DNA of 64,000 nucleotides from Alphaproteobacteria bacterium (lineage in GTDB: Bacteria > Pseudomonadota > Alphaproteobacteria > UBA828), in contig CBDCCI010000002.1 in assembly GCA_965214705.1 (NCBI GenBank), positions 2,208,001-2,272,000 on the forward strand. Direction: 5' to 3'. The notes under the pieces were generated by a model that saw nothing but the letters and a program-made list of their open reading frames with translations, was not told the DNA's origin and made no database searches. Below, piece by piece: positions 63 through 13,698 of this stretch (its first letter is position 1; each line of letters begins with the position of its first letter). The translations under genes were made by a program, and so were the position numbers.

Positions 63-1193
63 TCACAGACTTTTCAAGAAACTTATCAACGCTTCTTGAT
101 CGGCAACGCCTAAATCTGAGTATGCACTTGCCGCCATCCTTCCTTCTCCATCATGTGCCCTTATCGCCTCGTCAATATCAGCACTCCTGCCATCATGCAT
201 GTACGGTGGGCCCGTTGATATCAAGCCCCAGAGAGCGGGAGTTCGAATTTCCCTTTTAGTTGCGCGTCCTTCAGTCACCAACGGGCCATTTCCTGGACCC
301 ATGTCGTGCAATAGTAAATCCGTGTAAGCACGGAACACCCTATCCGAAAGCGACTTCACCTCCGAGTCTCCAGTCTTCAGCTCCGCTCTATGGCACAATT
401 CACAGCCGATATCTCTGAACACCTTGGCTCCATGCTGTTCGGAATGTGTCATCCAACTCGTTACCGGAGGTGGCTTCAATAACCTAATGTATTCAGCTAT
501 ACTATTCATCGCGACTTTCTCAAGCTTCCCTATCCCGATCCCCCCACTACTTTCCACCATTTCTGATCTTTCAATTCCCAACTCAGAAAAAAAAGCGGAT
601 GCGACAGCTTCGTCGATAGTTCCTGTGCGGCCAGTCCATCCAAAACGCCCATACACTCCCGATACATTTGGAAGACGACCCGATATGCCGTCTTTGTTCA
701 AATCCGCCGCATCTGCATATTCCAAAAAAGCGTTGGTGGCCACCGCCTCCAGCAAGCCGAGGCCAAATAGGGGGGGTGCCTTTCGACGAACGAAGCCCTT
801 TGGCGGAAATCTTTCTATCGTCCGATCATCTTCACTAATGATCTTAAATTTTTGAAATATACTTTCCTCTCTGTCTGAATTTCCAATTGAGTGAAACGCA
901 AACGTAGCATCTGTTGTTCCGCTTCCTGAAATCACTGGTTCTGCATGACACGACGCACAACTTTTAGCATTGTAGTATGGTCCTAATCCATCTTTTTCGC
1001 CCCATATGCGAACGAAATACCGGAAGCCTTCGTCAAAATTTTTTTTCTGTTCTGCGGAAATATCCTTGAATGGTAAACCAAATATGCTCGACTTGCGACT
1101 CGACAGATCGCTCTGCGAATCTAGGCCACTGCCAACACTCGACTGCAACATTAAGGCAAACGTGAGTACACTGACTCTCGCTATATGCTTCAT
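63..1193 (-). CDS. Di-haem oxidoreductase / putative peroxidase (DHOR family), exported
   Basis: Two CxxCH haem motifs (CASCH, CELCH); GLGP..N..SC, PPLFGLGLLEA, GRFGW, YTDLLLHDMG, RTPALWG and YMHDGR blocks typical of DHOR proteins; hydrophobic N-terminus after MKHIARV. ORF is open to 1262, so the start is uncertain. Confidence 0.85.
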   Translation of the reverse strand: MKHIARVSVLTFALMLQSSVGSGLDSQSDLSSRKSSIFGLPFKDISAEQKKNFDEGFRYFVRIWGEKDGLGPYYNAKSCASCHAEPVISGSGTTDATFAFHSIGNSDREESIFQKFKIISEDDRTIERFPPKGFVRRKAPPLFGLGLLEAVATNAFLEYADAADLNKDGISGRLPNVSGVYGRFGWTGRTGTIDEAVASAFFSELGIERSEMVESSGGIGIGKLEKVAMNSIAEYIRLLKPPPVTSWMTHSEQHGAKVFRDIGCELCHRAELKTGDSEVKSLSDRVFRAYTDLLLHDMGPGNGPLVTEGRATKREIRTPALWGLISTGPPYMHDGRSADIDEAIRAHDGEGRMAASAYSDLGVADQEALISFLKSL

Positions 1194-1370
1194 CCGAAGT
1201 TCGCAACCCGTGGCCACATGCTCCAAACATTTTCGTGACAAAAGACTCCCACGTCCACGCATTTGCGCCGCATTGACATAATCAGGCTGGTTATCACAGC
1301 GCCGTCGTCGCTTTCACTACCAATTCGCTGTCCGCGAGTAAACTGGATTTATCCTCGATTGAGCGTCCGC

Positions 1371-2453
1371 CTACTGTGGCATTCTAGCCGCTCCAAAAAA
1401 CGCGAGACCATACGGCGCCTTGCCCACCGGAATAGAGCGTATAACACTGAGTTCATTGGGATCAACAACAAGTATCTCGTTAATGGCGAGCTCGCTAACC
1501 ACAAGCAAATCCCCTGAAGGGGTGAATGCGACGTTCTTCGCGGCACGTGCGCGTTGATGACTAGATTGAGCCAGATCCAATACCCGAGCGTTTTCTCCGC
1601 GCATTGCGTTTCGAATCGATATTTTTCCCGAATAGAAACCTGCTACAGCCAGCTGCGGCTCATCATCGGTTGATAGGGCAATACCCCAAGGCGAGCGAGG
1701 CACAGTGATATTTTCTGCTATTCTGATTGTGTTAGCTAATCCGCTACCGCTATCCCAGCTTATCAAGGCAAGGGAATTGGACCCAAACTCACTAACATAA
1801 GCTAGCGGCGCATGGGGCAAAGCCACAACAGTGTAAGGCAGAGAGCCGACGTCGATTTCGCTTAATATGTCGCCGCTTTCTTCTCCCAGAGCCACTACTG
1901 AGACGGTGTTCGCCCCCCAATTGGTGACTAACGCAACCTGATCGTTGTCTACTAACGCTACGCCGTAGGGTATGGCTCCAACCTGGACACGATACAGTTC
2001 TCTTCCACTTTCGAGATTAACAATCGAAATTGAGTCGTCTCCCGCATTCGCCACAACCGCCCGGCTCCCATCTCTAAATAGGGCAATATCACGTGGGCTT
2101 CTGCCAACCTCAATTTTTGAGTCTTCCAAGACGGCTTGAATATCTACTACCGAAAGCGAAGATGAACCCGAGTTTGTGACGTATGCGAAGCGGCCGTTGG
2201 GGCTTACCTTTACATCGTATGGGTTTTTGCCTACATCAATGACGGCAAATTGCTCCCCTGAATCTACATTAACAAGAGAGACCGTATCGTCCCCCCAGTT
2301 TGTAACTATTAGGGTTCGATGTGATGAAGAGCTCTCACCATGCCCACCTCCTGCTGTAGCTATAGTCAGGTTCGCACAAATGACAGACATGGTGAGACAC
2401 AAAAAAACTAATGCTTGTAGAGCAAACTTCCTAGTCAACGCATTCGTCATCAT
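1371..2453 (-). CDS. YVTN/YncE-type beta-propeller repeat protein, exported
   Basis: Repeated VTNWG/YVTNSG/VANAG...VSVVD...I.VG..PY units; N-terminal signal-like segment; start chosen at MMTNAL. Confidence 0.85.
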   Translation of the reverse strand: MMTNALTRKFALQALVFLCLTMSVICANLTIATAGGGHGESSSSHRTLIVTNWGDDTVSLVNVDSGEQFAVIDVGKNPYDVKVSPNGRFAYVTNSGSSSLSVVDIQAVLEDSKIEVGRSPRDIALFRDGSRAVVANAGDDSISIVNLESGRELYRVQVGAIPYGVALVDNDQVALVTNWGANTVSVVALGEESGDILSEIDVGSLPYTVVALPHAPLAYVSEFGSNSLALISWDSGSGLANTIRIAENITVPRSPWGIALSTDDEPQLAVAGFYSGKISIRNAMRGENARVLDLAQSSHQRARAAKNVAFTPSGDLLVVSELAINEILVVDPNELSVIRSIPVGKAPYGLAFFGAARMPQ

Positions 2454-2685
2454 GAGATTAGGCTCCCGTAGTTGGACATTAAGAACTTGGGGATGCGAAA
2501 TGCTTGCCAGATCGCGTCTCAAAATGAGTTCGTTGGGGAGGGGACGGCATCATCGTTAGGCAATCACGGCACCCCCAGCGTCTCGTCAGCGCAGATGCTG
2601 GGGATTAGCCAACGGAGAGGTGCTTGTCCCCATCGCCATGTCCGTTTGGTTCCCTCCCCAGACATGCCATTTTATAAATATCAGA

Positions 2686-2713
2686 CATGATATGTGTGCC
2701 AAGGCATTAGTCA
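2686..2713 (-). promoter_or_regulatory. Possible sigma70 promoter for the YVTN-DHOR operon
   Basis: Minus strand reads TTGACT-N16-TATCAT in an AT-rich stretch upstream of the YVTN gene. Confidence 0.35.
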
Positions 2714-3329
2714 AGGAGGTGGATTTCAGGCGGCGGGAAGGCTAGCCGTGAGCCTTCTAAGGTGGACCACAGCCGCTCGCCGTGGGTCACGCGGACGCGC
2801 GCTGTCTCCGTGCCGCGGAGGTTGTGCTGGCAGCTGCGGTGCCTCCAGGGCACGCGGCCGAGCGAGTAGGCTAGACGGGTCGCACATCCAAGATGCCAGC
2901 GCCGCACCCGATCACAAGTGAGCGGGCTCCCGCTTTTCACAGTAGCCAATCGCCGGCGTGCCCCTTTCCCCAGGCTGGGGCCAGAAAACGACCGACCACG
3001 CCGAGCGCTATTGGAGTTGGCGGTATCGAGTGCCGGCCGTTTCGGCGGATTTGGAGGGCGGGTCGACTCGATCGGGCGCGTGAGGGCGCTCCCTAAGCAA
3101 TTGGACCGGCTGGTCGTCGTAACCGGTTGAAGCGGGCCGCCAATTCGAGCGCGCCACAAGAATCGACCGGCAAGCGGACATGGGCCAAACCGCCCGTGCC
3201 CGAGAGGCACGATGACCGCGATATCTCTCGGGTCGCCTTGACAGTCCGGGCGGGTGGGTGCCAGCGTCACCCAAGCCGGCCATGCGACAATCACCGATAA
3301 GCGGCCGGCACGCGACGGTGGAGGCTGGG

Positions 3330-3770
3330 ATGAGGACAGGCTTGGTGTGCGGCGCGCTGGCGGGCGCGCTGATCGTTGGCGGTTTCACGAGCGGTGCGCT
3401 CGGGGCGGATCCTTACGGCGTCTGGCTCAACGAGCGGCAGGACGCGCACGTTAAACTCTATTCCTGCAACGGTGACGAGCTGTGCGGCCAGATCGTGTGG
3501 CTCAAGCGTCCCCTGGGCGACGACGGCAAGCGGAGGCGGGACGTCAAGAACGACGACGAATCCCTCCGCGATCGGCCGATGTTGGGTATCCAGGTGCTGT
3601 TTGACCTGGAGGACCAAGGCGGCGGTCAGTGGGAAGACGGCGAGGTCTACAATGCCAGGGACGGCGACACCTACGACGCGGAGCTCGAGGTCATCGATGC
3701 GAACACGGTCAAGATGAGCGGCTGCATCTGGTTCGTCTGCAAGACCGAGACCTGGACCCGCGTCGAGTAA
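3330..3770 (+). CDS. DUF2147 domain exported protein
   Basis: Signal peptide, then DPYGVW...V....C...LCGQIVW...D.KN.D..LR.RP.LG...W..G.VYN..DG.TY...GC...C....W.R pattern. Confidence 0.85.
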   Translation: MRTGLVCGALAGALIVGGFTSGALGADPYGVWLNERQDAHVKLYSCNGDELCGQIVWLKRPLGDDGKRRRDVKNDDESLRDRPMLGIQVLFDLEDQGGGQWEDGEVYNARDGDTYDAELEVIDANTVKMSGCIWFVCKTETWTRVE

Positions 3771-3791
3771 TCGGACGGCGACGCCGTCCGA
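3771..3791. terminator. Inverted repeat directly after the DUF2147 stop (terminator/stabiliser hairpin)
   Basis: TCGGACGGCG-A-CGCCGTCCGA perfect 10-bp inverted repeat; no clear U-tract. Confidence 0.45.
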
Positions 3792-3937
3792 TAAACTCTC
3801 CTTATATCCCTCAATCGCCGGGCGCCCGCTCTGCTCGGTCGCGCGCCCTGCGCGCGTGGCGCAGTCGCGCCGTCCGGGCCTGACGGCCCGGCCCTCTTAT
3901 TGTTGTACTTCACGCTGGTTGCCGGTCAGACGTCTAG

Positions 3938-5584
3938 CCCGGATTTCTCACGAGTATGGTGTGCATCGGGGCTCTGCTCGTGAGAAAGTTCTTCTGCAAC
4001 AAAGACTTCACCGGCTGCAGAGGAGTTCCCCGATGCCCGCAGAGTGTAGTCCTCCCGCGATGCAGTTTGCACGCCTGAACGGGCGTGATGTGGTGGCCGA
4101 CTTCGGCGGCGGGGTGATGACCTCGGACGCGGGCGCCCTGCTGCTGGGCGCCACGGACCGGGCGATCGGACTGGTGGATTGCTTCGCCGCCTGCTTCTCG
4201 GACGGGCGCGCGGCCTCTCGTGTGGTGCACGACGTTGCCACCCTGGTGGGCCAGCGGGTGTTCGGGATCGCGCTGGGCTACGAGGACTTGATCGACCACG
4301 ACGCGCTGCGCCACGACCCCGTGCTGGGGGTGGTGCTGGGGCGTCTGGAGGCCGGGCGTGCGGGCTGTGCGCCGCTTGCCGGCAAGTCGACGCTGAACCG
4401 GCTGGAGCACGCGCCTTCGGGCGCCCATCGCTATCGCCGGATCGGTCATGAGCCTGAGGCGATCGAGACGCTCTTCGTCGATCTCTTCCTCGACGCCCAC
4501 GGGCAGGCCCCTGAGCGGTTGATCCTCGACCTCGACGCCACCGACGACCCGCTGCACGGCCATCAGGAAGGCCGCTTCTTCCACGGCTACTACGACTGCT
4601 ACTGCTACCTGCCGCTCTACGTCTTCTGCGGCGATCACCTGCTGGCCGCCAAGCTGAGGCGGGCCGACATCGACGCCAGCGCCGGCGCGGCCGAAGAGGT
4701 GGCGCGCATCGTCGCGCGCATCCGCGCCCGCTGGCCGGCAGTGGAGATCGTGCTGCGCGCAGACTCAGGCTTCGCCCGCGAGGGACTGATGGCCTGGTGC
4801 GAGGCGAACGGGGTGGACTATGTCTTCGGGCTCGCCCGGAACCCGCGGCTCACGGACCGCCTGCAACCGGCCCTGGACCTGGCCGAAGCCCGCTCGCGGG
4901 AGAGCGGCCAGCCGGCGCGGCTGTTCACCGAGTTCCGCTACCGCACGTGCAAGACTTGGTCGCGCCCGCGCCGTGTCGTCGGCAAGGCGGAGTGGATGCC
5001 GGGCCGCGCCAACCCCCGCTTCGTCGTCACCTCGCTGAGCGCGGCCGCCATCGACCGGCGGGAACTCTACGAGACCCTCTACTGCGCCCGCGGCGACATG
5101 GAGAACCGCATCAAGGAGTGCCAGCTCGACCTCTTCGCCGACCGCACCTCGGCTCAGACCATGCGCGCCAACCAGCTCCGTCTCTGGTTCGCCGCCATGG
5201 CCTACGTGCTGCTCGCAGCGCTCAGGCGCATCGCGCTCGCCGGAACTCGCCTTGCCCGCGCTACCTGCGGCTCGATCCGCCTCAAGCTGCTGAAGATCGG
5301 CGCCCAGGTCCGCCTGAGTACCCGCCGCATCCGCATCGCCATGGCCTCAGGCGCACCCCACGCGCCCGAGTTCGCACGCGCTCACGCCCGATTATGCACC
5401 TGAGCCGAGCCTCAGGCCCGCTGCCACCCTCCCGCCAACAACCAAAAACCCGCTCCAGCCTCAACCGCGCCCCCGGCGCCACCGCCACTCCTGCGTCATT
5501 ACCCGGACCACACCGCAAGGCTACCAACCAAACCCACGACAAACGCCAAACAACCCAACAATGGACGCTCGTGAGAAATCCGGG
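3938..5584 (+). mobile_element. IS1380-family insertion sequence (copy 1, intact, 1647 bp)
   Basis: Perfect terminal inverted repeats CCCGGATTTCTCACGAG / CTCGTGAGAAATCCGGG; CTAG on both sides (3934-3937, 5585-5588); encloses the transposase. Confidence 0.93.
4033..5403 (+). CDS. IS1380-family DDE transposase
   Basis: FGGG..TSDAG, GYEDLIDHD.LR.DP, LDLDATDD..HGHQEG.FF, LRADSGF, Y..RG.MENRIKE motifs; AGGAG RBS at 4021. Confidence 0.95.
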   Translation: MPAECSPPAMQFARLNGRDVVADFGGGVMTSDAGALLLGATDRAIGLVDCFAACFSDGRAASRVVHDVATLVGQRVFGIALGYEDLIDHDALRHDPVLGVVLGRLEAGRAGCAPLAGKSTLNRLEHAPSGAHRYRRIGHEPEAIETLFVDLFLDAHGQAPERLILDLDATDDPLHGHQEGRFFHGYYDCYCYLPLYVFCGDHLLAAKLRRADIDASAGAAEEVARIVARIRARWPAVEIVLRADSGFAREGLMAWCEANGVDYVFGLARNPRLTDRLQPALDLAEARSRESGQPARLFTEFRYRTCKTWSRPRRVVGKAEWMPGRANPRFVVTSLSAAAIDRRELYETLYCARGDMENRIKECQLDLFADRTSAQTMRANQLRLWFAAMAYVLLAALRRIALAGTRLARATCGSIRLKLLKIGAQVRLSTRRIRIAMASGAPHAPEFARAHARLCT

Positions 5585-6082
5585 CTAGACGGCGTGTTTT
5601 CCAGTCGGCTCATGGTGGGCTGGGAACACAGGTCGCGGCCGCTCTCCGGCGCCTTGCCTCAGGCCAACTTGAACAGAGGGTCCGCGCGGAGCGCGTCGTA
5701 GTCGTCGGCGTTTTCGTACCCGCAGGCGATGGCCAGCATGCGAAAGCGCAACATGGCCGAGAGCGAGTGGACCACCTGCGCCTGATTGCGTCGGTCGCGG
5801 ATGCAGCCTGCCAGGGTCTCGGCAAGACGTAAGCGGCGCTCCGCCTCTCGCAACAGGACCAGGTCGCCGTCAGAGGAGATCAGACCGCCGTCGAAGGCGG
5901 CACTCACCTTCTTGCGTCGGACGCTTGGCAGATCGAGGGGGAGAAGGCTACCGTCGGTCATGGCGGGCGTGGCGCTTCGTTGTTCGGAGAGGAAGACGCC
6001 TCGACAACGAATTCCTACTCGATGGCAACGGCTTACGCTACGTCCGCCACACCAAAGCCAGACCAGACGTGAATAATCCGGG
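5585..6082 (-). pseudogene. Truncated IS1380-family element (copy 2) with nonsense-mutated 5' transposase fragment
   Basis: Close paralogue of 9450-9948. Its end GAATAATCCGGG (6082) is followed by TTAG. The CDS from 5961 has TCA->TGA at 5659-5661 relative to copy 3, and homology stops at the CTAG flanking copy 1. Confidence 0.88.
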
Positions 6083-6203
6083 TTAGCGACAAGTCCGATG
6101 ATTGAGGGCCAACTCACCGGCAGGGTTCTCTCGGTGCTGACGCGGTGGTATGCTTGCGTAGCATAGACTAGCCCGACCTATTCATGGAGAGCCTTGCACT
6201 TGA

Positions 6204-8363
6204 CCCAAGTTGGCACTTTTTCCGGTTGCTCAATGCCGGTCTGCCCATATTTTGCGGACCGAAGTACCACATATTGGGGTAGCTCCGAGATGATGCCACT
6301 ATATGTGTAATTGAGGCGCTGGAAGCGCGTTGTAGTGCCAGGAGTTGTTAGGTATTGACGATTTTCCCTTGACCCCAGACCCCAAGCCGACAAATCTTGG
6401 CCCCTCGCAACAATCTCGCGACGGGCGACATGTTCATCAGGGCAACCAAGACCCACACCACCGACGGCAAGCCCGTCCGAAGCCATCGCCTCGTGCTCTC
6501 CCAGCGCATCGGCGACAAGGTCAGGCAGCGCACGCTCCTCAACCTCGGCACCGACTATCCGGTGCCGAAGGAGAAATGGCGCGAAGTGGCCGAACTCGCC
6601 GAGGCGCTGCTGCACGGCCGCCCGCCGCTGCTCCAAGCCGTCCCGGACGTGCAGGCCGCAGCCGAGGACATCGTCGCCAAGCTCAGGGCCAGGGGGTTCC
6701 GCGTCGAGGCGATGCAGGAAGAGGCGCGCAAGCCCGAGATCGCCACCGTCGACCTCGATACCCTGGAGCACGAGAACCCGCGCACCGTCGGCTGCGAGCG
6801 CCTGTGCCTCAAGGCCCTCGACGACCTTGGCTTCGCCGACATCCTCCACGGCCTTGGCATCAAAGGCCGAGACGGGCGCATCGCGAGCGCGCTGATCGTC
6901 GCCAGGATGGTCCATCCCGCCAGCGAGCGTGATACCAGCCGCTGGCTCCGCCACGACAGCGCGGCCGCCGAGCTCCTGGGCCTGGAGGGCGACCGCAAGG
7001 CGCTGCGGCGCAAGACGCTCTACCGCATCGGCGACCTGCTCTGGCGCCACCGGGCCGCCATCCAGAGGGAACTGTTCAACCGTGAGCGCGCGCTGCTCGA
7101 CCTGCCCGAGACGATCGCCTTCTACGATCTCACCAACGTCCACTACCACGGCCACACGGGCGGCGAGCTTCCCAGGTTCGGGCGCTCCAAGCAGAAGCGC
7201 GACGACTGTCCCCTCATCACGCTGGCGCTGGCGCTCGACGGCGCGGGCTTCCCGCGCAGTTGCGAGATCCTGCCGGGCAACGTGAGCGAGCCGGGCACGC
7301 TGCACGAGGCGCTGGCGCGGCTCGAGGCGGTGTGCGGCGGCACGGCGGCGAAGCCCACGGTGGTCATGGATGCGGGCATCGCCACCGAGGAAAACATCGT
7401 CTGGCTGGGCGAGCAGGGCTACGACTGGATCGCGGTCAGCCGCGGTGCCAGGCCTGCGCCGCCCGAGGGCGGACCCGAGGCCCTGCTGATCACCAGCGCG
7501 CGCCACGAGGTGCGGGCCTGGCGGCTTGCCAGCGAGGACGGCGAGGCGCGGCTCTACGTCGTCAGCGAGGGCAAGAAGAAGGCCGAGAACGCGATCATCG
7601 GCCTGAGGCGGAACCGCTTCGAGGCGGCGCTGGAAAGGCTCCACAGCGGCCTCCCGGTCAAGCGCCGCCTCAAGCGCTACGACAAGGTGCTGGAGAGCAT
7701 AGGCCGCCTCAAGCAGCGCTTCTCCGCCGTCGCCAGGCACTACGAGATCACGGTCGAGAAGGCGAAAACCGGCCCCAATGCCACCGCCGTGCGCTTCAAG
7801 CGCAGGCCGCGATACGACGAGGCCGATGAGGGCGCCGGCGCCTATGTGCTGCGCACCAGCCACGTCGACTGGGATATCGAGACGGTCCTGCGGACGTACT
7901 GGCGGATCACGGATATCGAGGCGACATTCAAGAGCCTAAAATCCGAGCTCGGCCTTCGCCCGATCTGGCACCAGCTCGACCGGCGCATCGCGGCCCACCT
8001 GCTGATCGCCGTGCTGGCCTACCACGCCGTGCATCTGATCCGTACCCGGCTGGCCGCGCGCGGCATCCACAAGTGCTGGGCATCGATCCGCGAGAGCATG
8101 CGGACCTGGGTGCGGATCACCACGCGCCTGCGCCAGACCGACGGCACGTTGATCGTCAATCGACAGGACACGCGCCCGGCCGCTGAGGTAGCCGCAATCT
8201 CCTCGGCGGCGGGCGTGGAACCCGCCATCCACCGCACGAGGACCCGCCTGCCGAACTGACAGAATCCAACAAAATGTAGTGCCATGTTGGAATCGGCCGA
8301 GAGAAATATCGCGTTACATCAACATGATAAAGGACATGGGTAGGACAAAAGTGCCAACCTGGG
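6204..8363 (+). mobile_element. IS1634-family insertion sequence (2160 bp)
   Basis: IRs CCCAAGTTGGCACTTTT / AAAAGTGCCAACCTGGG (1 mismatch); TTGA direct repeat at 6200-6203 and 8364-8367. Confidence 0.9.
6430..8259 (+). CDS. IS1634-family transposase
   Basis: MFIR...RLV.S.R.G.KVRQRTLLNLG N-terminus; FYDLT, FGRSKQKR.DCP, VVMDAGI, YW..TDIE..F.SLK.ELG.RPIWH motifs. Confidence 0.93.
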   Translation: MFIRATKTHTTDGKPVRSHRLVLSQRIGDKVRQRTLLNLGTDYPVPKEKWREVAELAEALLHGRPPLLQAVPDVQAAAEDIVAKLRARGFRVEAMQEEARKPEIATVDLDTLEHENPRTVGCERLCLKALDDLGFADILHGLGIKGRDGRIASALIVARMVHPASERDTSRWLRHDSAAAELLGLEGDRKALRRKTLYRIGDLLWRHRAAIQRELFNRERALLDLPETIAFYDLTNVHYHGHTGGELPRFGRSKQKRDDCPLITLALALDGAGFPRSCEILPGNVSEPGTLHEALARLEAVCGGTAAKPTVVMDAGIATEENIVWLGEQGYDWIAVSRGARPAPPEGGPEALLITSARHEVRAWRLASEDGEARLYVVSEGKKKAENAIIGLRRNRFEAALERLHSGLPVKRRLKRYDKVLESIGRLKQRFSAVARHYEITVEKAKTGPNATAVRFKRRPRYDEADEGAGAYVLRTSHVDWDIETVLRTYWRITDIEATFKSLKSELGLRPIWHQLDRRIAAHLLIAVLAYHAVHLIRTRLAARGIHKCWASIRESMRTWVRITTRLRQTDGTLIVNRQDTRPAAEVAAISSAAGVEPAIHRTRTRLPN

Positions 8364-8486: not shown

Positions 8487-9827
8487 TCAGGGGCCTGCTG
8501 CGGCGAGGCGGCCTGCGAGCAGTCGGAAGAGAGCGGCGTCCGGGCAGGCCGAGGCGAAGTGGATGCGGACGCGGGTGGCCTTCTCGATGACGCGGGCGCC
8601 GATCTTGAGGAGGCGCAGCCTGAGGGTTGCAAACTCGGCGCGGGCGAGCGGCGCTGTGCGGGGAATGGCGTCGCGGAGCGCGAGCATCAGCCAGTAGGCT
8701 GCGGTGTGGAGCACCAGCCTGAGCTGGTTGGCGAGCGGGCTCTGGCAGGAGGTGCGGTCCGAGGCGAGCTGGCCCTTGTGCATCTTGATCAGGTTTTCGG
8801 CCTGGCCGCGGGCGCAGTAGATGTCTTCGTAGAGGTGGCGGGGCTCGCCCTTGAGCGAGGTGACGACATAGCGGGCATCGAAGCCGCGCGTCGTCGCCTC
8901 CAGCCGAGCCACGACCCGGCGTTCGCGGCTCCAGGAGCGGGCGGCATAGGCGAAGGCGGCGAAGCTGCGCATCCTGTCCGCGCCGGCCTCGGCGCGGCGG
9001 ACCTTGAGATCGTCGGCCACCTCGTAGGCCAAGGCGTTGAGCGCGCGGTTGCCCGCGAGGCCGAAGATGTAGTCGACGCCGTTCTGCTCGCACCAGGCCA
9101 TGGCTTGCGCGCGGCCATAGTGGCTGTCTCCCCGGAAGACGATCCGAGTGTGCGGCCAGTGGCGGCGGATGCGGCGGACCAGGTGCTTGATGAGGGTGCG
9201 GACCTCGATCCCCGAGGGCGTCTTGCCGGGGCGCAGGAGGACCGCCACCGGCTTGCCGCTTTCCACGTGATAGACGTGGATGGGGAGGAAGCAGCGGGTG
9301 TCGTAATGAGCGTTGAACAGCGACAGCTGCTGGTGCCCGTGCACGGCATCGCAGGTGTCGTCGATATCCAGCGTGATGGCGGCGGGTGGGGCTGAGAAGG
9401 AGCGGCAGAAGAGATCGACCAGGGCGGCCGTCATGCGCGCCACCTCGATGCGAGACGGAGCGTTCTCCAGGCGGCTCATGGTGGGCTGGGAACAGAGATC
9501 GCGGCCGTTCTCCGGCGCCCGGCCTGAGGCCAGCTTGAACAGAGGGTCCGCGCGCAGCGTGTCGCAGTCGTCGGCGTCCTCGTACCCGCAGGCGATGGCC
9601 AACATGCGAAAGCGGAGCATGGCCGAGAGCGAGTGGATCACCTGCGCCTGATTGCGCCGGTCCCGGATGCAGCCCGCCAGGGTCTCGGCGAGACGCAAGC
9701 GGCGTTCCGCTTCGCGCAGCAGGACGAGGCCGCCGTCAGACGAGATCAGGCCGCCGTCGAAGGCGGCGCTCACCTTCTTGCGCGCGACGGCTGGCAGATC
9801 GAAGGGGAGAAGGCTATCGTCGGTCAT
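8487..9827 (-). CDS. IS1380-family DDE transposase (intact)
   Basis: FDGGLISSDGG, GYEDADD, LDIDDT.D.VHGHQQL, RGDSHY, YCARGQAENLIK motifs. Confidence 0.95.
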   Translation of the reverse strand: MTDDSLLPFDLPAVARKKVSAAFDGGLISSDGGLVLLREAERRLRLAETLAGCIRDRRNQAQVIHSLSAMLRFRMLAIACGYEDADDCDTLRADPLFKLASGRAPENGRDLCSQPTMSRLENAPSRIEVARMTAALVDLFCRSFSAPPAAITLDIDDTCDAVHGHQQLSLFNAHYDTRCFLPIHVYHVESGKPVAVLLRPGKTPSGIEVRTLIKHLVRRIRRHWPHTRIVFRGDSHYGRAQAMAWCEQNGVDYIFGLAGNRALNALAYEVADDLKVRRAEAGADRMRSFAAFAYAARSWSRERRVVARLEATTRGFDARYVVTSLKGEPRHLYEDIYCARGQAENLIKMHKGQLASDRTSCQSPLANQLRLVLHTAAYWLMLALRDAIPRTAPLARAEFATLRLRLLKIGARVIEKATRVRIHFASACPDAALFRLLAGRLAAAGP

Positions 9828-10682: not shown

Positions 10683-11174
10683 GATTTCGATGGTCGCTCT
10701 GCGAAAACAGAGCGGCGTCGTGACGGATCCTTCTGGAAGGCTAGGCAGGCCCTTTTAGCCTTCCCAGCCCGATCTTCGGTAATGGGGCGATTGCCGTCAA
10801 GCGCGTTGTTTATTGTAGCAGTAGTGGCGGCACGTTTGTTCGCTCGCAGACAATAAGCTTTCGCTGAATGCATCCTCGCTTCGAGCCTCGAGCAGGGATG
10901 CATTGGGCTTTAGGTGGAAGGATGCCAGTATTGTCGGCATTTTCCGATCGCATTTTTGGTGCGCTCACCTTAACTATGTCCGTCGCCAAGCTCTCGCTTC
11001 CGTCCGTGTTCAGCGCAGTGGCTGCCAATTTTTCCTGGTCCAAGTCGATTCCAGAGTGCCAATCTATTCAGCGTGCTCGTAACTGCCCAGGTCTGATTCC
11101 GCCGAGCACTCACGCGTGATGGACTGATGCCTCTGGCCTGGTGCCGCTGACGTGGAGCGGAGCGGCGGGGGATT

Positions 11175-12737
11175 TCAGAAGCGCAGTACCGGGATTAGCT
11201 GCATGGGATCGGGGTGCGCCAGGGTTTCGAGGACATTCCAGCGCTGTTTTCGAGCGGTGGCGATGACGGACCGCAGGTTGGCGAAGTCGCAGGCACCTTG
11301 CATCGAGCGGAAGCCGCCTGAGATTTTCTGACGCAGCTTGCCCATTCGCAGATCGCGCTCCGCCTCATTGTTCGAGAACGGGGTTCGCGGGTCGGTGAGG
11401 AAGCGCAGGCACCCCTCCTTGTACTTCTGGAGCCGGAGCGCGAGGTTGTGACCGATGCGGCGCTTTTGTCGTCCGCGCTTTCCGGTCTGGAGCGGCGGCA
11501 TCTCTTCGTGAGCGGCGATGGCACGTTCGAGGATGCGGTCCCAGGCTCGCGAGATGCGGGCGACCAGTGATGCGGGCACGTCGCGATCATTCTTGCGGGC
11601 GAAGCGGGCGGCTCTGTTGGCACGGGAGAGCAGCTGGTGCGTGCTCGTTGCCCAGTCTTCCTTCTCGATCTCGATCAGGGCCTGGAGCTCACGCAGGTGA
11701 TGGGCGTTGCAGGCCCCGTGGCGCACGCCCTCGAGAGCGAAGTAGGTGGCATAGTCGTCATGGATGACGATGCCGTTGAGCTTCTCGTCGAAATGGCCGC
11801 GCCCGCTGGCGACGCGCAGGATGGTCAGCAACGGGGTGCACAGCACGTGGAGCCAATGGGTCCGGGCGGCGATGCGGATGCCGGTCTCGTCGAGGTGTTT
11901 GACCGGGGCTTCGGTGCGGATGATCTCTGCGACACGATCGAGGAAGCCCTCGAAGCGCCGGGCGGTGCGCCGGCCCATGGCGGCGATGGTGGCCGTTGAG
12001 ATCTTGACCGCGAAGAGATCGCTCATGACCTCGGCGACGCGCTTCTCCGGAATGAACTGAGCGTGCAGCAGGTAGGTCACCCACGCGGTGATGCGCGGCC
12101 CGTACTGGACCGGGGCGCTCACGCCGTTCGGGAAGGCGGCTGTTGTCATGGTACCGCAGGCGGCGCAGAGGCAGCGATGGCCGCGATGCTCGGTGGCCTC
12201 GAGGGGCTGCGGCTCGGGCACATCGAAGACCTGCCGGCAGACGGGGGCTCCGTGACGGTCGGCGTCCGACAGCGGCGCGCCGCAGCCCTCACAGGCGGAC
12301 GGATCATGATCCACGACGTGGTCCGGGTTCTCGGTCCGCTCCAGGGTGGTTCCCTTGTGGCCCGGCTGACCGCCGCTGGGCCTGTCGGATTTGCCGCGCC
12401 GGCTCCGGGTGCGCTTCTCCTGGTCTCCGCTCTTCTTCTCCTGGTCTCCGCTCTTCTTCTTCAGGCCGTCGCTGGCCGGCGGCTTGGAGCTGGTGGTGCT
12501 GTCGAGCGCGGCGCTGCGCTCAAGTTCGGCGATCCGCTCGCGCAAGCGGGCGTTCTCCCGCTCCAGCGCGTCGTTCTCCTTGACCAGCGCCGCGCTCAGG
12601 CGAAGCAGCCCCTGGCCCCATTCCCGGATGGCTTTGACGGCGGTCATCGCGAAGGATTGTGGGGTGAAAAGGTCCTGCAGGCACGCGAAAGCCTCGTCGT
12701 GAGCGGCGAGGTCCGCGTGCCAGCGCGACACTGTCAC
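11175..12737 (-). CDS. IS66-family transposase (TnpC-like, single-transposase type)
   Basis: Coiled coil + DS..SSKPP.SD, GGQPGHKG, CxxC...CxxCG zinc finger, HLDETG, HDDY, CNAHHLREL, NNEAERDLR.GK..QKISGGFRS. Confidence 0.93.
   Translation of the reverse strand: MTVSRWHADLAAHDEAFACLQDLFTPQSFAMTAVKAIREWGQGLLRLSAALVKENDALERENARLRERIAELERSAALDSTTSSKPPASDGLKKKSGDQEKKSGDQEKRTRSRRGKSDRPSGGQPGHKGTTLERTENPDHVVDHDPSACEGCGAPLSDADRHGAPVCRQVFDVPEPQPLEATEHRGHRCLCAACGTMTTAAFPNGVSAPVQYGPRITAWVTYLLHAQFIPEKRVAEVMSDLFAVKISTATIAAMGRRTARRFEGFLDRVAEIIRTEAPVKHLDETGIRIAARTHWLHVLCTPLLTILRVASGRGHFDEKLNGIVIHDDYATYFALEGVRHGACNAHHLRELQALIEIEKEDWATSTHQLLSRANRAARFARKNDRDVPASLVARISRAWDRILERAIAAHEEMPPLQTGKRGRQKRRIGHNLALRLQKYKEGCLRFLTDPRTPFSNNEAERDLRMGKLRQKISGGFRSMQGACDFANLRSVIATARKQRWNVLETLAHPDPMQLIPVLRF
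12414..12460. repeat. 21-bp tandem duplication within the IS66 transposase (KKSGDQE x2)
   Basis: CTTCTCCTGGTCTCCGCTCTT occurs twice in tandem plus a partial copy; frame-preserving. Confidence 0.85.
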
Positions 12738-13402
12738 AAACCCTCGTCAGCCTCGACGGCCATGATCGCGGCCAGCACCGCCAGGCGTTCGCCCGCCGGC
12801 ATGGCCTCGTAGCGCCGGCCCCAGTTGGCCGCCTTGCGCTTGATGCGCTGGCGGTCGGTGAAGTTGCGGCCCGCGCAGCTCGCCCAGTGCACCCGGTCGG
12901 GCGCGAAGTTGAACCACACCACCTCGGTCCGCACCTGGGCCTGGGTCGTCACCTGCAGCGCCAGCCGGCGCCAGCCCGCCAGCAACTCGTCATAGAGCGC
13001 AGACGGGTGGCCCGAGACCATCACCTGGCAGGGCAGACCCTTGAGCAGTTCGAGGAGCGCGACGTGGTCGGCCTCCTCGTACTCGAAGCGGTAGCGCTGC
13101 GACGAACGCCGGGTCGCGTGCAGATAGGGCGGATCGCTGTAGACCAGCTCCGGGCCCAGGAACGGGAACGAGGCCAGAAAGGAGTGGGCGCAGCCGTGCA
13201 CCAACTCCACCGGGTAGCCACAGTCGAAGGACTCAAGCGCCCGCTCGTCGCGGTCAATCCCGATCGAGCGCACGGCCGCAGGCTTGCGCTTCATCAGCGC
13301 CCCGCCCCCCAAGTGGCTCTCGATATAGACAGAGTGCGGGGGCATCAGCGCAATCAGCGCCTGGCTCAGACCGGTCGTCGCCTTCGATCCGAAATACCCC
13401 AC
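12734..13402 (-). CDS. Short DNA adenine methyltransferase-like protein (Dam/D12 class)
   Basis: N-terminal Y.GSK, motif I-like YIESHLGGGAL, GID.D, catalytic DPPY, ..SG...LY and TEVVW.N; GAGGAG RBS; stop overlaps the transposase start (GTGA). Confidence 0.85.
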   Translation of the reverse strand: MGYFGSKATTGLSQALIALMPPHSVYIESHLGGGALMKRKPAAVRSIGIDRDERALESFDCGYPVELVHGCAHSFLASFPFLGPELVYSDPPYLHATRRSSQRYRFEYEEADHVALLELLKGLPCQVMVSGHPSALYDELLAGWRRLALQVTTQAQVRTEVVWFNFAPDRVHWASCAGRNFTDRQRIKRKAANWGRRYEAMPAGERLAVLAAIMAVEADEGL

Positions 13403-13430
13403 CGGCTGCTCCTCTCATGCGAGAGAGCAA

Positions 13431-13459
13431 CCCATAGGCGAGCGCGCCTATACAGTCAA
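13431..13459 (-). promoter_or_regulatory. Putative promoter with palindromic operator for the methyltransferase-transposase unit
   Basis: Minus strand TTGACT-N17-TATGGG (weak -10), overlapped by the inverted repeat ATAGGCG-N4-CGCCTAT (13434-13451). Confidence 0.45.
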
Positions 13460-13698
13460 GGGGCAGATCATCGATGCGCCGACGGCCAAACGGCACCGGC
13501 GGCGACCAACATCAGCACGCACTCAGATCTGGCGGCGGGGTACCTGGGTAGTTACGCGTGCTCGAACACTGTAAGGGGGTTCGGCAAACAGGTCGGGCTA
13601 CGTGCATCATCAGGAACCGCGTCCTGGCGCGGGGACAGAGGTGGGTTGTTGAATCCAAGCCATGCACCTTGTCCACCCAAGCTAAACCGGACAGCAGT

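Follow-up and report, generated by a model that had tools for sequence, protein, structure and literature searches.

The stretch of DNA analysed in this study (64,000 nucleotides, hereafter the window) belongs to contig CBDCCI010000002.1 of an alphaproteobacterial genome assembly (GCA_965214705.1; 7.92 Mb in 3 contigs, 67% G+C). An insertion sequence (IS) of the IS66 family, 2,477 bp in length, occupies positions 11079-13555 of the window. Its interior is filled by two open reading frames (ORFs) on the minus strand, the upstream one encoding a predicted Dam-like DNA methyltransferase of 222 aa and the downstream one, tnpC, a transposase of 520 aa. Every copy of the element in the host genome carries the methyltransferase gene, and the unit is conserved in other phyla, as named by the titles of the assemblies, and in a second, divergent lineage of IS66 elements.

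The element in the window and its copies in the host genome

The element ends in 14-bp termini beginning with GTAA, GTAACTGCCCAGGT and ACCTGGGTAGTTAC, and is flanked by an 8-bp target duplication (Table 1). A first-pass annotation of the window, made from the letters alone, had described inverted repeats (IRs) at these ends and a perfect duplication. The duplication is indeed perfect. The IRs, however, are complementary at 13 of their 14 positions (93% over 15 nt in the repeat search) and are not perfect. The same annotation had counted exactly two genes between the IRs, in agreement with the present analysis. The stop codon TGA of the methyltransferase gene (12736-12734) overlaps the start codon GTG of tnpC (12737-12735) within the sequence TTGTGACAGT (minus strand, 12739-12730). 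This GTGA overlap, which had also been pointed out, holds for the lineage of the window but not for the second lineage, where the two genes are separated by a short gap.

The IS66-type DDE transposase, the IRs starting with GTAA and the 8-bp target duplication make the element a member of the IS66 family. It lies outside both the classical and the tnpC-only groups of this family. In the usage of ISfinder, the tnpC-only members of IS66 form the ISBst12 group. The element resembles that group in its single DDE_Tnp_IS66 transposase with a DUF6444 N-terminal region, its GTAA termini and its 8-bp duplications. It differs from the group, in which tnpC is the sole gene, by a second gene conserved in 13 of 13 copies and preceded by its own promoter-like site and dyad upstream of tnpC, and by an N-terminal extension of about 57 aa in TnpC. 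With classical IS66 elements (tnpA-tnpB-tnpC, e.g. IS679) the element shares the transposase family and the coupling of upstream genes to tnpC in an operon. tnpA and tnpB are, however, absent; of the two ORFs with family matches, the upstream one, standing in their place, is the methyltransferase gene.

The element also has the hallmark of ISs with passenger genes (tISs): a gene not needed in cis for transposition, the product of which could still come from other copies in trans, lies inside the boundaries of the IRs and the target-site duplication in every copy. IS66 elements of this kind ('tIS66') are recognised, for example ISPa75 with fosZ downstream of tnpC; the passages of the article concerned give 254 IS66 entries in ISfinder and passengers in 7 of the 25 entries from Pseudomonas (PMC12888890). 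As far as ISPa75-fosZ is described in those passages, the window element differs from it in that the extra gene lies upstream of tnpC, encodes a methyltransferase and not a resistance protein, and occurs in two IS66 lineages.

Table 1. Positions of the features of the element in the window, and of dyads with the changed half-site at related loci
Feature	Position	Strand	Remarks
Target-site duplication, copy 1	11071-11078		GCGTGCTC; 8 bp, perfect
Terminal inverted repeat, transposase-distal end	11079-11092		GTAACTGCCCAGGT; repeat search and comparison of copies
tnpC, IS66-family DDE transposase, 520 aa	11175-12737	-	PF03050, E 1.4e-38; DUF6444; NF033517
21-bp perfect tandem duplication in tnpC	12414-12455	-	Repeats KKSGDQE in the TnpC linker; in 4 of 12 aligned copies, absent from 8 of 12
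Dam/D12-like DNA methyltransferase gene, 222 aa	12734-13402	-	DPPY at residues 90-93; predicted enzyme
C6 run (G6 on the coding strand) in the motif I codons	13305-13310	-	Extra C (+1 frameshift) here in 5 of 12 aligned copies
Shine-Dalgarno-like GAGGA	13410-13414	-	Methyltransferase gene starts (GTG) 7 nt further on; stretch conserved in the leader alignment
Promoter-like site	13431-13459	-	Predicted from conservation: TTGACT (13459-13454), 17-nt spacer, TATGGG (13436-13431)
Dyad	13452-13433	-	TATAGGCGCGCTCGCCTATG; right arm overlaps the -10-like box
Terminal inverted repeat, methyltransferase-proximal end	13542-13555		ACCTGGGTAGTTAC; invariant in the leader alignment (8 elements)
Target-site duplication, copy 2	13556-13563		GCGTGCTC; 8 bp
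CATCG-N10-CGATG sites	L211: 1400-1419, 1446-1465; L213: 1473-1492; also in L129, L130, L118		Upstream of the start codon

Thirteen copies of the element were found in the host genome. Their termini are identical, and the 8-bp duplication, perfect in every case, differs from copy to copy. None of the 13 lacks the methyltransferase gene; it is intact in seven copies, carries one common frameshift in five and is interrupted in one. The 12 uninterrupted copies fall into three groups. Four copies have the 21-bp tandem duplication in tnpC, one of them with an extra insertion of 32 bp in tnpC near 11599. Three copies are without the 21-bp duplication and have an intact methyltransferase gene. The remaining five have common diagnostic substitutions together with an extra C in the C6 run; residues 29-222 and 1-50 of the methyltransferase are matched in different frames there. 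Each of these five frameshifted copies has its own duplication, which indicates that the sub-lineage moved after the frameshift. The boundaries, the copy number and the recent mobility of the element in the host genome are established by these observations. When the 13 duplications were pooled, 47 of 104 positions were G or C, as compared with 67% in the genome. The element therefore prefers A+T-richer targets.

The host genome also contains IS66 genes without a methyltransferase. A transposase gene of this kind, 66-67% identical, is represented by at least 11 full-length matches and 3 partial ones. The one sister IS examined (L126; G000:C3:96500-101500, 2550-4214) is about 1.66 kb long and has the same 14-bp termini and a single gene, as is the rule in the ISBst12 group. 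Its TnpC (496 aa; PF03050, DUF6444 and zf-IS66) is 58% identical to that of the window in an alignment that begins at residue 58. The promoter dyad described below is absent from it. Since this sister IS has the same termini, a TnpC of 58% identity and no second gene, the window element looks like a tnpC-only IS to which a 5' module has been added. The product of tnpC in the window scores 283.2 bits with NF033517 (cutoff 180). In the homologue list and the alignment, its N-terminal extension was not found in tnpC-only relatives: non-truncated homologues of 69-92% identity cover 95-100% of the query, and most of those below 60% cover about 87-93%.

Several further observations were made in the host genome. 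One copy with its own 8-bp duplication (L128; G000:C1:2066576-2071152) has its methyltransferase gene split, in the 5' part, by an insert of 2.1 kb; the two long ORFs of the insert gave no Pfam match, and no Rfam family was found at the locus. At another place (L127; G000:C1:1549935-1556339, 936-7340) two copies of a relative, 82% identical to the element and 89% in the methyltransferase, stand head to head, about 1.7 kb apart. The intervening ORFs are without a Pfam match. This pair could be a composite transposon. The sister IS L126 has T-runs on both flanks and is adjoined by an IstB_IS21 gene. As the element and this sister IS have common ends, cross-mobilisation between them is conceivable. 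In the window itself, the element has another transposase gene (8487-9827, minus strand; 446 aa, DDE_Tnp_1_4, E 5e-165) at a distance of 1.2 kb.

Relatives in other assemblies and a second IS66 lineage

Relatives were collected in a scan with one genome per species, and the genome loci discussed here are the best 80 of 266 confirmed ones. A set of 80 metagenome loci was obtained with an alignment of closer relatives (A2) as the query; a metagenome scan with the protein P0046 gave no relative. The gene layout was read by hand from ORF lists for six loci of each set.

The 80 genome loci come from 14 other assemblies, in which the methyltransferase is 88-96% identical at the protein level. According to the record titles, these assemblies belong to Alphaproteobacteria (11), Dehalococcoidia, Candidatus Binatia and Candidatus Tectimicrobiota, that is, to four phyla. 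Exact copies of GTAACTNCCCAGGT, inverted and 2.2-2.5 kb apart, enclose the methyltransferase gene at 65 of the 80 loci, and the other 15 show one exact match, none, or a wider spacing. Together with the 13 genome copies, this bears out the earlier proposal that both genes move as a unit. Copies lacking the methyltransferase, which the first-pass annotation had named as evidence to the contrary, were looked for in the host genome, and all 13 copies carry the gene. At four of the six genome loci read (L039, L095, L098 and L114), the methyltransferase gene is followed by an overlapping ORF of 465-512 aa, which is PF03050-positive in L098. The element is degraded at the other two (L093 and L055). 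The Dehalococcoidia locus L039 shows an 8-bp duplication, GTTTTTTC; no 8-bp duplication was found at the element ends in L098.

In two samples of genomes, the element or its protein proved to be rare. Among 400 other genomes of the same class, four matched the element DNA when two candidates per genome were scored. Among 400 other genomes of the same phylum, a protein relative reached E <= 1e-30 in two, and both relatives belong to the stand-alone type discussed below. At one genome locus (L120; G275:C1:4227204-4230845), an ORF which, by eye, starts like an IS66 transposase gene and continues with unrelated sequence comes after a relative of the methyltransferase gene (72-73% at the DNA level). 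This locus is probably an interrupted copy.

In the metagenome loci, the methyltransferase is 68-97% identical, and many of the contigs match the element in length (2.2-2.8 kb). At four of the six sampled loci with downstream room (L138, L141, L152 and L187), an IS66 TnpC gene starts 20-30 nt after the methyltransferase gene. No IS66 gene adjoins the methyltransferase gene at the other two. In L209 it is followed by a gene for an Ogg-like DNA glycosylase (4176-5030). In L172 nothing is adjacent to it, and an IS91-type transposase gene lies 1.6 kb away.

The second lineage is seen in L152 and L138, where IRs of 20-27 nt starting with GTAACTAC surround the methyltransferase gene and a gene for a TnpC of 484 aa; L152 in addition shows the target duplication CCAGTTTT. 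Between L152 and the window, the TnpC proteins are 31% identical and the methyltransferases 71% identical. Two IS66 lineages that differ greatly from each other therefore carry one methyltransferase module. Most likely, the module would have been exchanged between IS66 elements or acquired by them at least twice. A database protein of 236 aa, P0125, consists of the first ~160 residues of the methyltransferase fused to the C-terminal end of a second-lineage IS66 TnpC (PF03050 match), and it is probably the result of a deletion inside a second-lineage element.

Relatives of both genes are also present on contigs of four metatranscriptome libraries (two carry the labels coral and sponge), although contigs of this origin are not proof of transcription. 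Several metatranscriptome and DNA contigs of relatives end exactly at the IS terminus (11079, 13555), as expected for a repeat boundary in assemblies. A chance juxtaposition of the two genes, or a one-off capture with fortuitous repeats, is refuted by the 13 copies with individual duplications and by the presence of the unit in 14 other assemblies and in metagenomes.

The methyltransferase and its promoter-like dyad

The catalytic part of the methyltransferase is of the Dam type. The profile of the family matches DpnM at 3.1e-9 and E. coli Dam at 3.5e-6, and PF02086 (D12) is matched by 33 of 38 aligned relatives. The protein was also matched by the PADLOC model MTase_II (2.5e-21) and by phrog_56 (7e-21). 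When the AlphaFold2 model (pLDDT 91.5) was compared with known structures by VIA-align, with residues 1-167 of the model aligned, E. coli Dam (Z 17.7), T4 Dam (17.2), DpnM (16.6) and Mcbe1 (16.6) stood 3-4 Z units above other class I methyltransferases (Z <= 13.9). The catalytic fold is thus shared with Dam, DpnM and T4 Dam in the model (146-155 aligned residues), as are the order and form of the G.K motif, motif I and DPPY. Within the family, conservation covers the G.K motif at the N-terminus, DPPY, motif I (YIESHLGGGALM) and the acidic end of strand 2. G5, H23, G32, D90, P91, P92, H113 and S130 are invariant in 38 relatives down to 39% identity, and G32, G34, D90, P91, P92 and Y93 are invariant or nearly so. 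Motif I had earlier been called atypical; it aligns, however, with YFEPFVGGGALF of DpnM and is normal for the Dam family. As far as a predicted model can tell, the Dam-type fold and motifs of the protein are established.

The recognition domain of Dam-type enzymes, in contrast, is absent. Residues 4-67 of the profile align with DpnM 18-79 and residues 81-158 with DpnM 183-265, so that the DpnM recognition domain (~80-182, between motif III and DPPY) falls between the two. About 100 residues of Dam and DpnM are without a counterpart, and 147 of 244 Dam residues align; the earlier remark that there is little room for a recognition domain was correct. The protein has instead two extra C-terminal helices (residues 181-217) with a conserved basic stretch. 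Residues 170-222 of the model are unmatched in Dam, and R184, the RIKRKA stretch and W194 are conserved in this helix pair. Prediction of a complex of two copies of the methyltransferase gave a median score of 0.38, the mark being 0.42. The family is large: among 5,292 word-sharing candidates scored, 3,768 proteins were found at E <= 0.001, and there are 6,018 representatives at 50% clustering. Its members, where named, are annotated 'DNA adenine methylase'.

The methyltransferase gene is preceded by a promoter-like site with a dyad. In the leader alignment of 8 elements, TTGACT is followed by one base and by TATAG-N10-CTATG, the right arm of which runs into TATGGG; the termini are invariant in the same alignment. 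The pattern YATAG-N10-CTATG has a single occurrence in the 64-kb window, and none of 100 shuffles contained it. It lies about 30-65 nt upstream of the gene at 69 of the 80 genome loci and 54 of the 80 metagenome loci. The combined pattern TTGAC-NN-YATAG-N10-CTATG was found in register upstream of the gene at 69 genome and 52 metagenome loci (121 of 160). The second IS lineage has the dyad as well (L138, L152), and so do L172 and L209, where no IS66 gene adjoins, and a plasmid locus from Xanthomonas (L116). The plasmid is a conjugative one of Xanthomonas oryzae, and CATAG-N10-CTATG stands on it twice (3926-3945 and 4671-4690), once ahead of the methyltransferase gene and once at the 3' end of that gene. 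The dyad at the 3' end precedes the next small gene, and this hints at a small regulon.

The dyad was also considered as a hairpin, and this was rejected: the stability is not conserved (z -2.0, -0.6 and -4.7), and the second-lineage version does not fold. Since the arms are conserved, the spacer varies and the second-lineage version is not a hairpin, the dyad looks like a double-stranded recognition site.

More distant members of the family, 42-54% identical, are stand-alone genes on plasmids. At five of six stand-alone relatives of 42-46% identity, the dyad has a changed half-site, CATCG-N10-CGATG, in the same layout: TTGACA (TTTGCA in L118), one base and the dyad, with the start codon a few bases past the right arm. 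The carriers are the IncP-1 plasmid pHB44 (two occurrences), pPUV-8, a Methylorubrum plasmid and two chromosomal loci. The layout is absent from the sixth relative, an Acinetobacter plasmid gene which lies behind other genes. CATCG-N10-CGATG is a candidate operator of plasmid 'DNA methylase' genes. The 'DNA methylase' gene of pHB44 is presumably upf31.0 of the IncP-1 plasmids. A passage of PMC4914505 lists the gene name. The plasmid genes, such as that by the trb region of pHB44 (IncP-1 beta), resemble the gene of the element in family, length and promoter/dyad layout; they differ in the half-site, in standing alone and in the absence of a transposase. On the Methylorubrum plasmid (L118, 4690-6773), the methyltransferase gene is followed by genes annotated as cysteine desulfurase and DUF4007.

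The promoter-like site and dyad are conserved among the related loci, and the half-site changes together with the methyltransferase clade. Since no other protein accompanies the dyad and the half-site follows the clade of the methyltransferase, the methyltransferase is the most economical candidate for its reader. A dyad lying across the promoter of a methyltransferase gene recalls the self-regulating type II methyltransferases and the operators of controller proteins, and likewise suggests feedback. The known cases use an N-terminal helix-turn-helix or a separate C protein. Here there is no helix-turn-helix domain and no restriction gene, and the candidate reader would be the C-terminal helices or the active site.

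It would be possible that the protein has lost methylation and acts as a Dam-derived, DNA-binding repressor or accessory protein, with its C-terminal helices on the dyad. The missing recognition domain, the conserved basic helix pair without a counterpart in Dam and the overlap of the dyad with the -10-like box are in line with this explanation. Invariance or near-invariance of the G.K motif, E-x-x-x-G-G-G-A, the acidic end of strand 2 and DPPY in relatives as distant as 39% identity would, however, be unexpected if catalysis had been lost, and we consider the explanation unlikely.

GATC is found 7 nt upstream of the -35-like box in five of seven aligned relatives (one further row was unaligned) and is not invariant. 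This bears on the view of the element as a self-methylating IS, in which the enzyme would shield transposition intermediates or new copies from restriction, or would mark the ends of the IS in the manner of Dam with IS10 and IS50. Dam control of IS10 and IS50 is established, and the methyltransferase and the transposase would be co-expressed from one operon. Neither lineage, however, has the half-sites CATAG/CTATG in its terminal repeats, the GATC varies as just described, and DNA that moves within one cell already carries the methylation of that cell, so that the need for shielding is not obvious. We regard this explanation as very unlikely. The analysis gave no support for the shielding of intermediates or of new copies, nor for the reshaping of the host methylome that the first-pass annotation had also suggested.

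Possible control of transposition by the methyltransferase module

The explanation that we prefer, with confidence and doubt in about equal measure, is that the element is an IS66 IS of the tnpC-only type with a methyltransferase module as its leader, and that the methyltransferase reads its own dyad and thereby gates the expression of tnpC. The module would consist of a sigma-70-like promoter, with a 5-bp dyad across the spacer and the -10 box, and the gene for the Dam-like methyltransferase, followed by tnpC. Both genes are arranged as one operon behind one conserved promoter-like site and dyad. The methyltransferase would bind the dyad or methylate adenines in its arms, and this reading would set the transcription of its own operon. 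Since no promoter of tnpC itself is visible, the supply of transposase would follow the level of the methyltransferase or the methylation state. The result would be a damping of transposition that acts in trans across all copies and depends on their number; if the dyad is methylated, there would also be a link to replication, as in the Dam control of IS10. A second and compatible benefit, suggested by the plasmid relatives, may be that the carrier DNA is protected from restriction after transfer.

The logic proposed here has a parallel in known systems. Host Dam regulates the transposase promoter and the activity of the ends in IS10/Tn10, IS50/Tn5 and IS903. There, as proposed here, the supply of transposase is governed at its promoter by adenine methylation or by the reader of that methylation. 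The host enzyme and a GATC site are used in those systems, however, whereas the element would by analogy use its own predicted enzyme and its own site.

Several facts weigh against this explanation. First, the methyltransferase is dispensable in cis: because the five frameshifted copies have their own duplications, the gene is not needed in cis for transposition, although the seven intact copies could supply the protein in trans. The frameshift itself should be read with care, as homopolymer indels between copies could be assembly or polishing errors in repeats. Second, the window methyltransferase alone matched 0 Pfam families, and it scored 25.7 bits with TIGR00571 (E 8e-6), far below the cutoff of 114.85. 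Third, no promoter was found in 11000-13650 by a consensus scan, which gave 2 terminator-like sites against 1.7 expected; the promoter is therefore proposed from conservation only. The arms of the dyad are 15 bp apart from centre to centre, which is unusual for a simple dimeric repressor. Many of the loci counted for the dyad are copies of one IS and are not independent, and the change of the half-site could reflect shared ancestry rather than co-adaptation. Finally, no IS66 gene stands beside the methyltransferase gene in the six plasmid records of which the flanks were read. From these plasmid loci and the two of six sampled metagenome loci without an adjoining IS66 gene, it follows that the family is not tied to IS66.

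These plasmid relatives lead to the main rival interpretation. The methyltransferase may be cargo, that is, an orphan enzyme which protects the carrier DNA (a plasmid, an integrative and conjugative element or a chromosome fragment) from restriction or benefits the host otherwise; the dyad would then serve only the homeostasis of the methyltransferase, and tnpC would use its promoter. Of the 198 matching plasmid records, 134 were typed as conjugative. Orphan methyltransferases are enriched in the leading regions of plasmids, and an anti-restriction role has been proposed for them in passages of PMC11541004. The protein identity of 88-96% across assemblies titled as four phyla implies that the IS crosses host boundaries often, and the frameshifted copies moved all the same. 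On the other hand, the published IS66 passenger in the passages of PMC12888890, fosZ of ISPa75, lies downstream of the transposase gene, whereas the present gene is upstream, in the operon, and overlaps the start of tnpC. The link of the gene to two IS66 lineages with TnpC proteins 31% identical points to a connection with IS66 biology, and the breadth of protection is uncertain for an enzyme without a recognition domain. We consider the cargo interpretation possible, though doubtful.

If the methyltransferase does gate tnpC, as we prefer to think, a more far-reaching form of the mechanism can be imagined. The module might be a portable epigenetic switch: the C-terminal helices would recognise the 5-bp arms, the enzyme would methylate them, full methylation would shut the operon, and hemimethylation at the replication fork would briefly open it. 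Such a switch would have been recruited at least two times by IS66-type elements. This is a speculative extension of the sequence comparison, and we think it improbable. If it were true, transposition would depend on replication and copy number whatever the host, with no need for the host Dam.

No IS66 element with an internal methyltransferase gene was found in the open-access literature, where the search covered text only and ISfinder, TnPedia, REBASE and supplementary tables were outside its scope. The part of the finding that we regard as most interesting is that the promoter and dyad follow the methyltransferase family across ISs and plasmids. ISs are usually seen as a transposase with its ends, and methylation control, as in IS10 and IS50, as the borrowing of host Dam. 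The IS66 elements described here form a clade which spans at least two lineages and, by the titles of the assemblies, four phyla, and which keeps a small Dam-like enzyme of its own ahead of the transposase. If it is true that the enzyme reads the dyad, the element would contain a self-contained circuit for the control of transposition that is independent of the host, and the enzyme would offer a compact model of the way in which DNA is found by a Dam core that has no recognition domain. For surveys of genomes and methylomes, the finding means that many such 'DNA adenine methylase' genes are IS copies and not epigenetic regulators of the host.

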